Assembly (NCBI RefSeq): GCF_024502345.1
Contig: NZ_JALDNN010000002.1
DNA: 64,000 bases
Direction: 5' to 3' (one strand)
Source of the DNA: Escherichia coli
GTDB taxonomy: Bacteria > Pseudomonadota > Gammaproteobacteria > Enterobacterales > Enterobacteriaceae
Shown piece by piece: positions 45,001-54,000 of this stretch. The position numbers are program-made. Positions within the stretch are counted from its first letter, which is position 1; each line of letters opens with the position of its first letter.

Positions 45001-48000
45001 CCCGAGTGAGCGAGGAAGCACCATGGAACAGTACTCATAAATTCTGCATACGCTCAATGCCTGCAAAATCACCTCCCATAGGGGTTATCCACTTATCCAC
45101 GGGGATATTTTTATAAGATCTTTTTAAATAGTTGTTAGATTTTTATTTTTAGAATGCCCACAGGCCTTTATCCATGCGGGTTCCAGAGAGGGATCTGTGA
45201 CAAAACGCCCTTTCAGTGTGACAAATCACCCTCAAATAGCCGCCATTTCTGTGACAAGTTGCCCTTAACCCTGTGACAAATTGCCCTCAGGAAGCGTTGC
45301 TTTTCACAAAGTTATCCATCCCTGTTGACTCTGTTTTATGAAGTGTGACAATCTTAAAGTCTGTCACACTTCGCATGGACCTGTCATGGCGGAAATAGCG
45401 GTTATAAACCATAAAAAACGTAAAAATAGTGAATCGCCACGGATAATCTAGACACTTCCGAGCCGTTGATAATACTGGTTTTCATATTCTGTCGGTGACA
45501 TCTGTTCGCTAGAACCATGCCGACGCTTACTGTTATAAAACATTTCGATGTAATCAAAAATATCACTGCGGGCTTCTTCCCGCGTTCCGTAGATCTTTTT
45601 CTTTATCCGTTCACGTTTCAACAACTGGAAAAAACTTTCTGCAACCGCATTATCATGGCAGTTACCGCGACGGCTCATGCTACCCTCCAGGCCGTGTGAT
45701 TTCAGGAACGACTGCCACTCATGGCTTGTGTACTGACTGCCCTGATCCGAATGAACCAGCACCTGTTTTTCGGGATTACGCCGCCATACAGCCATCAGCA
45801 GTGCGTTCAGGACAATGTCCTTTGTCATCCGGGATTGCATGGACCAGCCGATAATTTTGCGTGAGAACAGATCAACAACAACGGCAAGATACAGCCAGCC
45901 TTCGTGGGTCCTGATGTAGGTTATGTCCGTTACCCAACGCTCATCAGGAGCATCCGGATTGAACTGTCGCTGGAGCCTGTTGGGTGACACGATACTGGCC
46001 TCGCCTTTACGTGCCCGCGGGCTTCGGTATCCGACCTGAGCCTTTATTCCGACACGTTTCATCAGTCTCCAGACTCTGTTTACTCCGCACTGTTGCCCGC
46101 TGTCACGCAGATCCAGATGGATTTTGCGATAACCATAGACGCATCCCGATTCCAGCCAGAACTGTTTAATCTGTCCTGTCAGTCTCAGGTCTGCCTGATG
46201 GCGTTGTGAATGCGGCTGCTGAAGCCAGGCGTAAAAACCACTGGGATGAACATCCAGCACCCGACAGAGCAGGCGAACAGGCCAGCAACAGGAGTTGTCA
46301 CGGATAAAGGCGTACCTCAGTCGGACAGCTTTGCGAAGTACGCCGCTGTAGATTCAATTGGTCAACGCAACAGTTATGTGAAAACATGGGGTTGCGGAGG
46401 TTTTTTGAATGAGACGAACATTTACAGCAGAGGAAAAAGCCTCTGTTTTTGAACTATGGAAGAACGGAACAGGCTTCAGTGAAATAGCGAATATCCTGGG
46501 TTCAAAACCCGGAACGATCTTCACTATGTTAAGGGATACTGGCGGCATAAAACCCCATGAGCGTAAGCGGGCTGTAGCTCACCTGACACTGTCTGAGCGC
46601 GAGGAGATACGAGCTGGTTTGTCAGCCAAAATGAGCATTCGTGCGATAGCTACTGCGCTGAATCGCAGTCCTTCGACGATCTCACGTGAAGTTCAGCGTA
46701 ATCGGGGCAGACGCTATTACAAAGCTGTTGATGCTAATAACCGAGCCAACAGAATGGCGAAAAGGCCAAAACCGTGCTTACTGGATCAAAATTTACCATT
46801 GCGAAAGCTTGTTCTGGAAAAGCTGGAGATGAAATGGTCTCCAGAGCAAATATCAGGATGGTTAAGGCGAACAAAACCACGTCAAAAAACGCTGCGAATA
46901 TCACCTGAGACAATTTATAAAACGCTGTACTTTCGTAGCCGTGAAGCGCTACACCACCTGAATATACAGCATCTGCGACGGTCGCATAGCCTTCGCCATG
47001 GCAGGCGTCATACCCGCAAAGGCGAAAGAGGTACGATTAACATAGTGAACGGAACACCAATTCACGAACGTTCCCGAAATATCGATAACAGACGCTCTCT
47101 GGGGCATTGGGAGGGCGATTTAGTCTCAGGTACAAAAAACTCTCATATAGCCACACTTGTAGACCGAAAATCACGTTATACGATCATCCTTAGACTCAGG
47201 GGCAAAGATTCTGTCTCAGTAAATCAGGCTCTTACCGACAAATTCCTGAGTTTACCGTCAGAACTCAGAAAATCACTGACATGGGACAGAGGAATGGAAC
47301 TGGCCAGACATCTAGAATTTACTGTCAGCACCGGCGTTAAAGTTTACTTCTGCGATCCTCAGAGTCCTTGGCAGCGGGGAACAAATGAGAACACAAATGG
47401 GCTAATTCGGCAGTACTTTCCTAAAAAGACATGTCTTGCCCAATATACTCAACATGAACTAGATCTGGTTGCTGCTCAGCTAAACAACAGACCGAGAAAG
47501 ACACTGAAGTTCAAAACACCGAAAGAGATAATTGAAAGGGGTGTTGCATTGACAGATTGAATCTACAACCGCGCTCTTGATGTCAGACTCCCTGAACAGT
47601 TCTCGATAATCGGGAAACTCAGAGCGCATTATCCTGTGGTCACACTCTGCCATGTGTTCGGGGTTCATCGCAGCAGCTACAGATACTGGAAAAACCGTCC
47701 TGAAAAACCAGACGGCAGACGGGCTGTATTACGCAGTCAGGTACTTGAGCTACATGGCATCAGCCACGGTTCGGCCGGAGCAAGAAGCATCGCCACAATG
47801 GCAACCCGGAGAGGCTACCAGATGGGACGCTGGCTTGCTGGCAGGCTCATGAAAGAGCTGGGGCTGGTCAGCTGTCAGCAGCCGACTCACCGGTATAAAC
47901 GTGGTGGTCATGAACATGTTGCTATCCCTAACTACCTTGAACGGCAGTTCGCCGTGACCGAGCCAAATCAGGTGTGGTGCGGTGATGTGACCTATATCTG

Positions 48001-51000: not shown

Positions 51001-54000
51001 TGAACGCATGACCCAACAGCGCATTGTTGAGCTGTTTCAAACGGATTTAGGCTACCGCTATTTAGGTAACTGGGAATACCGCGATAACAATAAAAACATA
51101 GAAGTTGAGCTACTAACGAGCTGGCTGAAAAAGCGCGGCATAAGCGAGGCGCTGATTAATCGCGTGATTCGTCAGCTAGACAGCGCAGCGGCGCTGGGCG
51201 AAGGTAAAAAGCTCTATTACGCCAACAAAGAGGTTTATCGCCTGCTGCGTTACGGCGTGAAAGATAAAGAAGGTGCTTGTAGATTCAATCTGTCAATGCA
51301 ACACCCCTTTCAATTATCTCTTTCGGTGTTTTGAACTTCAGTGTCTTTCTCGGTCTGTTGTTTAGCTGAGCAGCAACCAGATCTAGTTCATGTTGAGTAT
51401 ATTGGGCAAGACATGTCTTTTTAGGAAAGTACTGCCGAATTAGCCCATTTGTGTTCTCATTTGTTCCCCGCTGCCAAGGACTCTGAGGATCGCAGAAGTA
51501 AACTTTAACGCCGGTGCTGACAGTAAATTCTAGATGTCTGGCCAGTTCCATTCCTCTGTCCCATGTCAGTGATTTTCTGAGTTCTGACGGTAAACTCAGG
51601 AATTTGTCGGTAAGAGCCTGATTTACTGAGACAGAATCTTTGCCCCTGAGTCTAAGGATGATCGTATAACGTGATTTTCGGTCTACAAGTGTGGCTATAT
51701 GAGAGTTTTTTGTACCTGAGACTAAATCGCCCTCCCAATGCCCCAGAGAGCGTCTGTTATCGATATTTCGGGAACGTTCGTGAATTGGTGTTCCGTTCAC
51801 TATGTTAATCGTACCTCTTTCGCCTTTGCGGGTATGACGCCTGCCATGGCGAAGGCTATGCGACCGTCGCAGATGCTGTATATTCAGGTGGTGTAGCGCT
51901 TCACGGCTACGAAAGTACAGCGTTTTATAAATTGTCTCAGGTGATATTCGCAGCGTTTTTTGACGTGGTTTTGTTCGCCTTAACCATCCTGATATTTGCT
52001 CTGGAGACCATTTCATCTCCAGCTTTTCCAGAACAAGCTTTCGCAATGGTAAATTTTGATCCAGTAAGCACGGTTTTGGCCTTTTCGCCATTCTGTTGGC
52101 TCGGTTATTAGCATCAACAGCTTTGTAATAGCGTCTGCCCCGATTACGCTGAACTTCACGTGAGATCGTCGAAGGACTGCGATTCAGCGCAGTAGCTATC
52201 GCACGAATGCTCATTTTGGCTGACAAACCAGCTCGTATCTCCTCGCGCTCAGACAGTGTCAGGTGAGCTACAGCCCGCTTACGCTCATGGGGTTTTATGC
52301 CGCCAGTATCCCTTAACATAGTGAAGATCGTTCCGGGTTTTGAACCCAGGATATTCGCTATTTCACTGAAGCCTGTTCCGTTCTTCCATAGTTCAAAAAC
52401 AGAGGCTTTTTCCTCTGCTGTAAATGTTCGTCTCATTCAAAAAACCTCCGCAACCCCATGTTTTCACATAACTGTTGCGTTGACCAATTGAATCTACACT
52501 GGCCATCTTAATGAAACCGTGTGGCTGATTGACTGGAAAAATCCAGAAGCAAACGATTTTGCCATTGCCGAAGAAGTCTCTATCAAGGGTGAAAACAAAA
52601 AATGCCCAGACATAGTGCTGTATGTCAATGGTATCGCTCTAGGTGTGATTGAGCTGAAACGCTCTTCGGTGTCTGTCTCTGAGGGTATTCGCCAGAACCT
52701 CGATAACCAAAAGAAAGATTTTATCCGTAACTTCTTCACCACCATGCAATTGGTGATGGCGGGTAACGACACGCAAGGCTTGCGTTACGGCACGATTGAA
52801 ACCCCGGAGAAGTATTATCTTGAATGGAAAGAAGAGATAGAGAACGGGTATAGCCATAAGCTCGACTTTCACCTGAGCCGCGTATGCAATAAAGCGCGTT
52901 TTTTACAGATCATCCACGATTTTATTGTTTTCGATGCGGGTATTAAAAAGACCTGTCGTCACAATCAGTTCTTTGGTATTGAAGCGGCAAAACGCCATAT
53001 CGCAAGGCGTGAAGGCGGCATTATTTGGCATACGCAAGGTTCTGGCAAAAGCCTCACTATGGTGTGGCTGGCCAAATGGATACGTGAAAATGTCAAAGAC
53101 GCCCGTGTATTGATCGTGACCGATCGTACCGAGCTGGATGAGCAGATAGAAAAAGTATTCACCGGTGTTGAGGAAGATATTTATCGCACCAAAAGCGGTG
53201 CCGATTTGGTGGCGACGCTCAATCAGCCCAACCCTTGGTTGGTATGCTCTTTAGTCCATAAATTTGGTCGGCAGTCTGATTCGGAAAACGATACCGCGAC
53301 GGATGAGTTTATTGCCGAGTTAAAGAAATCCCTACCATCGGACTTTAAAGCCAAAGGTGACCTATTCGTATTTGTTGATGAATGCCACCGTACTCAATCG
53401 GGCAAGTTGCACGAAGCGATGAAGTCCATTCTGCCAGAAGCCATGTTTGTCGGCTTCACCGGCACCCCCTTGATGAAGAAAGACAAGAAAAAATCGGTTG
53501 AGGTATTTGGCCCTTACATTCACACCTATAAGTTTGATGAAGCTGTGGCCGATGGCGTTGTGCTCGATTTACGCTACGAAGCACGAGACATCGACCAAAA
53601 TGTCACGTCGCAGAAAAAGGTCGATGAATGGTTTGAAGCCAAAACTCGCGGCTTATCTCGATTAGCGAAAACCCAGTTGAAACAGAAATGGGGCACCATG
53701 CAAAAGGTGCTGTCCAGTAAATCGCGTTTGCAGCAGATTGTGAATGATATCTTGCTGGATATGGACACTAAGCCACGCCTGATGGATGGCTACGGCAATG
53801 CCATGTTGGTCTGCTCTAGTGTCTATCAAGCTTGTAAAGCTTATGAAATGTTCAGCCAAACAGATTTAGCCGGCAAGGTGGCTATTGTCACCAGTTTTCA
53901 GCCGACCGCTGCGAGCATTAAAGGGGAAGAAACCGGTGAAGGCTTAACGGAAAAGCTCTTTAAGTACGATATTTACCGCAAAATGCTTGCGGATTACTTC

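Follow-up and report, generated by a model that had tools for sequence, protein, structure and literature searches.

Two inverted copies of IS30 lie in a strongly rearranged plasmid region of the 64-kb window, by which we mean the whole stretch of DNA analysed here (64,000 nucleotides). One interrupts hsdR, while the other separates fragments of two different IS3-family elements. This raises the question of how the second junction came about, and whether the inverted pair has rearranged the DNA around it.

Results

Two IS30 copies with different flanks

The inverted pair reported in the initial annotation was recovered at exactly the same coordinates (Table 1). Both copies are 1,221 bp long, with the ends TGTAGATTCAAT...ATTGAATCTACA and 26-bp imperfect terminal inverted repeats. 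Copy 1 and reverse-complemented copy 2 are identical at 1221/1221 positions, 3,710 bp lie between them, and both differ from the annotated IS30A of K-12 at two positions (1219/1221 identical). Each contains an intact ORF for a 383-aa DDE transposase, matching the IS30 transposase profile NF033563 (transpos_IS30) with E = 3e-82 and 276 bits at a cut-off of 80 bits. Both copies therefore have the element length, the terminal repeats and the single transposase ORF of the IS30 family, but the 2-bp target-site duplication is found only at copy 2 (CT/CT) and is lacking at copy 1 (GC/AC).

Table 1. Features around the two IS30 copies (positions in the window)
Feature	Position	Strand	Remarks
IncFIA-type replicon remnant	42696..45429	+	upstream region of repE and first ~44 bp of repE; stops at ISEhe3 start
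ISEhe3 3' part	45430..46346	-	nt 313-1229 of the 1,229-bp element; orfB region and IRR; includes GC
IS30 copy 1	46347..47567	+	transposase ORF 46409-47560; recombinant junction, flanks GC / AC
IS911 3' part	47568..48483	+	from AC duplication to IRR ...GACCACTTCA; orfB ORF 47636-48475
First DUF262 gene, 3' remnant	48484..48970	+	IncY (P1-like) type I R-M locus; cut by IS911 end
Second DUF262-domain gene	48954..50984	+	676 aa, intact
hsdR 5' part, codons 1-99	50981..51277	+	ends in left CT (51276-51277)
IS30 copy 2	51278..52498	-	transposase ORF 51285-52436 (-); simple insertion, CT duplication
hsdR 3' part	52499..55296	+	starts with right CT (52499-52500); TIGR00348 HsdR, E = 2.6e-157
SprT-family gene	55293..56308	+	end of IncY-derived segment
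IS5-family element	~56350-57549		3' of IncY-derived segment

Copy 2 had been described as a clean insertion in hsdR with a perfect CT duplication, which agrees with all that we find. Its flanks read ...GGTGCT–IS30–CTGGCC..., the insertion point follows codon 99, and excision in silico of IS30 together with one CT yields an uninterrupted hsdR of 1,030 codons. The corresponding site is empty, with a single CT, in the IncY plasmid NZ_CP148442.1, while the IncY plasmid NZ_CP061756.1 carries the same hsdR::IS30 insertion at a flank identity of 99.97%. Homology to both plasmids begins exactly at 48484, and the remnant of the IncY restriction locus spans 7.8 kb. The 64-kb window lacks hsdM, hsdS and, of the first DUF262 gene, the 5' part, all of which these IncY references contain. 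The intact hsdR, hsdM and hsdS of a functional type I restriction-modification system are thus not found together here, hsdR itself being split by IS30. Copy 2 would represent an ordinary IS30 hot-spot insertion, probably acquired by descent from an IncY/P1-like plasmid lineage in which hsdR::IS30 was already in place.

Copy 1, as had been noted, lacks a 2-bp duplication at its canonical ends (...GCCGC–IS30–ACCGCG...) and parts two different IS3-family elements of opposite orientation, which share ~54% nucleotide identity and stand head to head. The further statement that each of them lacks a half is too strong, as the missing portion is the 5' 312-335 bp (IRL and orfA), about a quarter of the element. 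On the IS3-family transposase profile the left fragment covers positions 110-369 of 369 and the right one 105-368 of 369. The left fragment is 100% identical to an ISEhe3 element rebuilt from OW968419.1, which E. coli genomes carry in intact form at 100% identity; its orfB ORF (45448-46260) matches NF033516, and the name rests on an exact OrfA with the source name 'ISEhe3 transposase A'. The element is not complete here, its 5' 312 bp being missing beside IS30. The right fragment has 99.7% identity to nt 334-1249 of IS911 rebuilt from NZ_CP077650.1, the PGAP name 'IS3-like element IS911' and a match to NF033516 with E = 3.4e-90. Since the window lacks its 5' 335 bp with IRL, orfA and the A6G slippery site, this piece is, judged by its sequence, a fragment and not a functional copy. 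On the far side of the ISEhe3 part, the IncFIA remnant aligns to NZ_CP069967.1 (L008 13060-15777) at 98.5%; the repE coding sequence begins there at 15734, and its remainder is absent from the 64-kb window.

Alternative IS30 boundaries were also checked at copy 1, and no 2-bp duplication was found at the canonical ends. Boundary shifts of up to 4 nt give rise to small CG-rich repeats, the best being the 4-bp CCGC, which we rejected because it needs the right end to be moved by 1 nt (+1), while copy 2 and the K-12 annotation fix the ends. These repeats reflect the similar GC-rich cores of both targets. A separate ISEhe3 5' part at 62667-62979 was considered as the missing partner of the left fragment and likewise rejected, as it is 97.5% and not 100% identical and is truncated by an IS26 end instead of by IS30.

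Parental insertions and hybrids in other replicons

Intact ISEhe3::IS30 with GC–IS30–GC is present in CP057091.1 and OW968419.1, and intact IS911::IS30 with AC–IS30–AC in NZ_CP077650.1 and in K-12 (IS911A::IS30A). Among 5,426 complete E. coli genomes, the ISEhe3/IS30 junction occurs in 245 and the IS911/IS30 junction in 866. The mismatched flanks of copy 1 can be explained by parental insertions that were GC/GC and AC/AC, in that its left end would keep the flank of ISEhe3::IS30 (GC) and its right end that of IS911::IS30 (AC).

The comparison with related plasmids that had been proposed as a check brought up the same kind of IS3-family/IS30 hybrid elsewhere, with IS30 between two unlike IS3-family parts and unmatched flanks in CP057164.1, CP043759.1, NZ_CP034789.1, NZ_CP070072.1 and CP148537.1/CP148533.1. 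The architecture of the window recurs in CP057164.1, there with a 94% IS911 variant, and in CP148537.1 with a ~70% relative, and NZ_CP070072.1 has the reciprocal 5'/5' hybrid. In CP148537.1 both reciprocal junctions are found 13.3 kb apart on inverted IS30 copies, and the record thereby documents a natural inversion between the two members of such a pair. The odd GT/AC flanks in this record were considered as a signature of the transposase and rejected; the same 10-mer (GCCGC–TGTAG) is altered on both strands and the record has IS30 indels, which points to a systematic base-calling error. An apparent excess of 3'/3' hybrids was discarded as an ascertainment effect of 3'-half queries, since 5'-half queries found 5'/5' hybrids. 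For the outer junctions of the window, repE'–ISEhe3 and IS911–'DUF262, which would also be those of the proposed parents, no counterpart was found in PLSDB or complete E. coli genomes, and neither was the source replicon.

Similarity of the target sites

It has been described that IS30 targets hot spots, duplicates 2 bp of its target and reacts between distant copies (PMC9333248). In IS911, ISEhe3 and a third IS911 relative, IS30 was found directly 3' of the A6G/A7G frameshift motif, and insertions at the same position in the frameshift window, with IS30 pointing either way with respect to its host IS, occur in IS911, its 94% variant, the ~70% relative and ISEhe3. When target sites were compared as 26-mers against random sequence, hsdR and IS911 agreed at 16/26 positions (p about 0.0003). 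With the lambda LHS (centre 33290-33291), the one published hot spot used and placed by coordinates from PMC9333248, the hsdR, IS911 and ISEhe3 sites agreed at 13-15/26 positions (hsdR 15/26, IS911 14/26), with p of 0.001-0.011 per comparison, uncorrected and with three registers tried. IS911 and ISEhe3 probably share the IS30 position because the stretch 3' of A6G/A7G resembles the nearly palindromic IS30 hot-spot target.

Discussion

We consider it probable that copy 2 is an ordinary insertion in hsdR, that copy 1 is the product of an exchange between ISEhe3::IS30 and IS911::IS30, and that the targets are hot-spot-like. An exchange between two pre-existing IS30 copies would have joined the IncFIA repE::ISEhe3 context to DUF262::IS911 in the IncY restriction locus, and in doing so would have removed or relocated the two 5' parts together with hsdM/hsdS and the remainder of repE. 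Copy 1 is best read from these flanks as the seam between the IncFIA remnant and the IncY-derived restriction-locus remnant. The agent would most simply be RecA-dependent homologous recombination over 1.2 kb of near-identical DNA, or alternatively the IS30 transposase with two copies as its substrate; the sequence expected at copy 1 is the same for either agent. We infer the order of events and the enzyme behind this exchange, while element identities, junctions, parental structures, reciprocal products and target similarity are directly observed. The crossover point was sought from IS30 SNPs and is not visible, because the copies differ by 0-4 SNPs with no parent-specific pattern. With the reciprocal junction, IS911-5'...GGCTAC–IS30–GCGGCTTTTTTT...ISEhe3-5', absent from the 64-kb window, the event may have been a deletion, an inversion or a replicon fusion. 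Of the IS30-mediated deletion or rearrangement initially suggested for copy 1, the rearrangement scar stands, whereas a deletion specifically is neither required nor favoured, the flanks being halves of the widespread ISEhe3::IS30 and IS911::IS30 duplications.

The same junction, GC–IS30–AC, is predicted if IS30 in ISEhe3 attacked an uninterrupted IS911 hot spot on the same molecule (or the reverse) and the intervening DNA was deleted or inverted. Such a transposase-driven intramolecular transposition, which corresponds to the initial suggestion, is in keeping with the deletions, inversions and cointegrates that IS30 produces via IR-IR junction intermediates (PMC9333248), and reuse of the exact dinucleotide is plausible at the IS911 site, which is hot-spot-like and used in at least three IS3-family elements. 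However, the right junction is base for base that of IS911::IS30 in K-12 and the 866 E. coli genomes, so that a ready-made partner for simple recombination is abundant, and no sequence feature demands a transposase. We therefore regard this course of events as unlikely.

A false join across the repeated 1.2-kb IS30 is very improbable. Assemblies are notoriously prone to error at identical repeats of such length, and the unmatched outer junctions would be in line with one, but hybrids of the same architecture are found in several independent assemblies, both flanks stop exactly at canonical IS30 termini, and the surroundings form a coherent IS mosaic. Still harder to credit is an arrival as a composite transposon, be it the 3,054-bp ISEhe3'-IS30-'IS911 block with its two IS3-family right ends or an IS30-flanked 6.2-kb unit. 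The block has a complete IRR at either end and is found again in IncF plasmids, and IS30-flanked compound transposons are known from entries in the reference list of PMC9333248; yet matching outer direct repeats are found neither in the window (TAG vs AAT) nor in CP057164.1 (AAA vs ATG), and the block is bordered by a different backbone on each side. For the larger unit, GC and CT flank the IS30 pair on the outside where one outer 2-bp duplication would be expected, and copy 2 has its own CT/CT. That copy 1 was made by inversion between the two copies of the window can practically be dismissed, for although their identical sequences lie in inverted orientation with 3,710 bp between them, and such an inversion is documented in CP148537.1, copy 2 has matched flanks and hsdR halves collinear with the IncY reference, reversal would less parsimoniously leave both copies without matched flanks, and the ISEhe3'-IS30-'IS911 hybrid also occurs in plasmids without the hsdR copy.

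Having thus retained the exchange between two nested insertions, we note that inversion of the 3.7-kb segment between the copies, raised in the initial annotation, is plausible in principle. The window, a single assembly, shows the un-inverted state of its IS30 pair, since copy 2 keeps CT/CT and the hsdR halves are collinear. As the restriction system is non-functional here, the insertion or a possible inversion should leave the host phenotype unchanged.

With some reservation, and leaning slightly towards doubt, we put forward that the programmed -1 frameshift window of IS3-family elements may be a systematic homing target of IS30, the nested units then serving as portable 1.2-kb homology hubs by which replicons are repeatedly fused and segments inverted. 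Were this true, every insertion would disable its host IS. Such a general rule was not found in the open-access literature, outside of which the original target-specificity papers lie.

The findings on this IS30 pair are already known biology and ordinary plasmid mosaicism, and their importance beyond annotation is slight. We propose to annotate the locus as ISEhe3 (3' part)-IS30-IS911 (3' part), DUF262 remnant, second intact DUF262 gene and hsdR::IS30. It offers a worked example of how unmatched IS flanks can be traced to two parental insertions, each flank being matched to its own target duplication, and shows nested IS3-family::IS30 units as common recombination substrates in enterobacterial plasmids.

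Compared with known systems, the hybrids in other plasmids differ from the window in their IS911 variants or relatives and in their backbones. The ISEhe3::IS30 of CP057091.1 and OW968419.1 has the insertion point and GC duplication seen here; the left junction ...AAGTACGCCGC–TGTAG is the same and the ISEhe3 3' part 100% identical, but next to IS30 the window has no ISEhe3 5' part. The ISEhe3-3'–IS30 junction is also present in the CFT073 chromosome, and K-12 holds the remnant IS30B'–GC–ISX, in which ISX corresponds to the 5' part of ISEhe3. IS911A::IS30A in the CP4-6 prophage of K-12 MG1655 (insN-insI1-insO') shares host element, IS30 orientation and AC duplication with the window, as well as the insertion point, which lies 335 bp into IS911 and directly 3' of the A6G frameshift motif, and the right junction ...CTACA–ACCGCGCTCTTGATG is identical in both; in the window, however, only the 3' side is kept, and an inverted ISEhe3 3' part replaces the IS911 5' part. 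Hot-spot insertion of IS30 as described for the lambda LHS (PMC9333248 and work cited there) features a 2-bp duplication and a nearly palindromic target, as is the case here.

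Results

The initial annotation described the IS30 pair accurately, since coordinates, orientations, the target duplication of copy 2 and the lack of one at copy 1 are all seen in the sequence. The copies lie 3,710 bp apart, match each other at 1,221/1,221 positions after reverse complementation of copy 2 and show two mismatches to K-12 IS30A. In both, the terminal repeats are present and the 383-aa transposase ORF is intact, matching the IS30 model NF033563 (E = 3e-82).

Coordinates of mobile-element features in the window
Feature	Position	Strand	Details
IS30 copy 1	46347-47567	+	flanks GC / AC
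IS30 copy 2	51278-52498	-	flanks CT / CT
ISEhe3 fragment	45430-46346	-	100% identity to nt 313-1229 of 1,229-bp element rebuilt from OW968419.1
IS3-family transposase ORF, left of copy 1	45448-46260	-	profile positions 110-369 of 369
IS911 fragment	47568-48483	+	99.7% identity to IS911 rebuilt from NZ_CP077650.1
IS3-family transposase ORF, right of copy 1	47636-48475	+	profile positions 105-368 of 369
IS26 copies	23997-24816, 27014-27833, 31231-32050, 61849-62668		
IS5/ISKpn26-like copies	~966-2169, 29082-30289, 56350-57549		partial: 60322-60926

Copy 2 is, as proposed, a clean insertion with a CT duplication (...AAGGTGCT-IS30-CTGGCCATC...). The IncY plasmid NZ_CP148442.1 holds the empty hsdR site with a single CT, and in silico removal of IS30 and one CT restores an uninterrupted 1,030-codon hsdR, whose product is 97.5% identical to HsdR of that plasmid, placing the insertion after codon 99. 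Since the IncY plasmid NZ_CP061756.1 carries the same hsdR::IS30 insertion (99.97% identity) with the upstream genes retained, copy 2 is older than the event at the copy 1 position.

At the canonical ends of copy 1 (...AAGTACGCCGC-IS30-ACCGCGCTCTTG...) there is no target duplication, and alternative IS30 boundaries yielded none compatible with the fixed ends. A CCGC repeat would require the right end to be shifted by one base, which the ends set by copy 2 and the K-12 annotation exclude. The two different IS3-family elements noted in opposite orientation on either side are ISEhe3 and IS911 (~54% nucleotide identity). Both fragments lack the 5' 312-335 bp (IRL and orfA); their ORFs are directed away from IS30 and match the IS3-family transposase model over its C-terminal two-thirds. 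The right fragment is named IS911 by PGAP and is closed at 48483 by the IS911 right terminal repeat. E. coli genomes contain intact, 100% identical copies of the 1,229-bp ISEhe3 (12 places in the record of strain HS), and the exact OrfA of this element bears the source name 'ISEhe3 transposase A'. Two further ISEhe3 pieces were observed: a 50-bp remnant of the right end (16876-16925; nt 1164-1213, 96%), and the 5' 313 bp (62667-62979), which share 97.5% identity with the reference and are truncated by an IS26 end (TTTGCAACAGTGCC, 62653-62666) at most ~3 bp from the IS30 insertion point in ISEhe3 elsewhere. This IS26-ISEhe3-5' junction seems to be frequent among plasmids of Klebsiella and Citrobacter.

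The two parental nested insertions are classical. CP057091.1 and OW968419.1 contain a complete ISEhe3 split as GC-IS30-GC and NZ_CP077650.1 a complete IS911 split as AC-IS30-AC, so that GC...AC at copy 1 comprises one half-duplication per parent. In MG1655, IS30A is annotated within IS911A, leaving a 5' fragment of 335 bp, and the junction sequence is identical to that of the window; ten kilobases away, truncated IS30B is followed by GC and then 'ISX', which is the 5' part of ISEhe3 (310 of 314 positions identical over GC and ISX). IS911 interrupted by IS30 is also mentioned in PMC9333248 and PMC4924310. Of 5,426 complete E. coli genomes, 245 contain the ISEhe3-IS30 junction, 866 the IS30-IS911 junction and 184 uninterrupted ISEhe3. 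NZ_CP071016.1 (3006-4226) carries IS911::IS30 with unmatched flanks, AC on the right and on the left GC, the same as the ISEhe3-type duplication; this could reflect a point mutation or the trace of an exchange at the extreme IS30 end.

Left of ISEhe3, the match to the IncFIA region of NZ_CP069967.1 ends ~44 bp into repE, the remainder of which is absent from the window; as ISEhe3 destroyed repE, the IncFIA remnant is presumably non-functional. Iteron-like 11/22-bp repeats (AAACTACAAAT-type) lie upstream of the truncated repE (43567-43727). A 37-bp G+C-rich unit is repeated 13.5 times in tandem (41582-42080, 93% matches); this array, overlapped by long ORFs on both strands, sits between inverted IS1 fragments (40463-41231, 44369-44908). 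On the IS911 side, the window becomes homologous to the IncY type I R-M locus (hsdM-hsdS-DUF262-DUF262-hsdR-sprT) exactly at 48484, within the first DUF262 gene, and remains so to 56308, where an IS5-family element follows; the window lacks hsdM, hsdS and the 5' portion of the first DUF262 gene. Two DUF262-domain genes separating hsdS from hsdR, together with a SprT-family gene behind hsdR, give this P1-like locus an unusual operon layout that may unite two defence functions. Copy 1 thus forms the seam where two backbone remnants meet. Neither outer junction, repE'-ISEhe3 or IS911-'DUF262, was found in PLSDB or complete E. coli genomes. The region of copy 1 also contains IS5-family elements, fragments of IS1 and four IS26 copies, and the IS26 and IS5/ISKpn26-like load marks it as a heavily IS-driven mosaic.

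Discussion

We propose that ISEhe3-3'(inverted)-IS30(+)-ISEhe3-5'(inverted) and IS911-5'-IS30(+)-IS911-3' would have exchanged at any point within both IS30 copies, giving the ISEhe3-3'(inverted)-IS30-IS911-3' of the window and, as its reciprocal counterpart, IS911-5'-IS30-ISEhe3-5'(inverted). This second product is known as one aligned piece in NZ_CP070072.1 and, with an inserted IS2, in the NZ_CP0628xx series; searches with 3' halves had favoured 3'/3' hybrids, a bias corrected by a 5'-half search. The same ISEhe3'-IS30-'IS911 hybrid on an IncF plasmid (CP057164.1, 6001-9050) differs in its IS911 part at 57/916 positions dispersed along the length, suggesting independent formation with another IS911 variant. 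The interpretation of copy 1 is partly supported: a rearrangement is upheld, but an IS30-mediated deletion is neither needed nor favoured. Simple RecA recombination between two IS30 copies is preferred, because ready-made IS30 partners are abundant, and it predicts GC-IS30-AC; two other possible agents, action of IS30 transposase on a pair of copies and intramolecular transposition into a hot spot that was still uninterrupted, predict the identical junction and are indistinguishable from it by sequence.

The proposed inversion of the 3.7-kb segment has a direct precedent, judging from CP148537.1, a plasmid with the two reciprocal junctions on IS30 copies in inverted orientation, 13.3 kb from each other (2054-3274, 16541-17761). 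Flipping the intervening segment, which includes espT, yields intact C::IS30 (C being a third, IS911-related IS3-family element) and ISEhe3::IS30, and the plasmid is a natural inversion product. Its flanking dinucleotides are GT/AC in place of GC/GC, probably through systematic errors in base calling, as IS30 in this record contains indels. In its single assembly, the window itself is un-inverted, given CT/CT at copy 2 and collinear hsdR halves. Being identical, inverted and separated by 3.7 kb, the two 1.2-kb repeats could flip the segment, and CP148537.1 shows that such events occur; an inversion here would be without obvious consequence for the phenotype, the R-M system being defunct already.

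IS30 lies only a few bases 3' to the frameshift motif in both IS911 (TTAAAAAAGGCT[AC]CGCGCT) and ISEhe3 (TTAAAAAAAGCC[GC]GGCGTA), its orientation relative to the host element being opposite in the two. Element C (~70% identical to IS911; CP148537.1, NZ_CP034789.1) and the 94% IS911 variant of CP057164.1 carry IS30 at the same point. We compared 26-bp windows centred on the duplication against random 26-mers from the window. The hsdR and IS911 sites share 16/26 positions (random fraction as similar or more, ~0.0003). The lambda hot spot LHS (33290-33291; PMC9333248) matches hsdR at 15/26 (~0.001), IS911 at 14/26 (~0.003) and ISEhe3 at 13/26 (~0.011), fractions to be multiplied by three for the three registers tried. 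Likeness between the IS911 and ISEhe3 sites is not independent evidence, as the elements are homologous. The sequence likeness supports hot-spot targeting, a documented IS30 behaviour (PMC9333248). The one mildly interesting by-product is that IS30 recurrently targets the IS3-family frameshift window, with at least three host elements hit; no statement of this as a rule was found in the searchable literature. The structure as a whole belongs to known classes, namely IS30 hot-spot insertion, K-12-like IS-in-IS nesting and IS-mediated recombination in plasmid mosaics.
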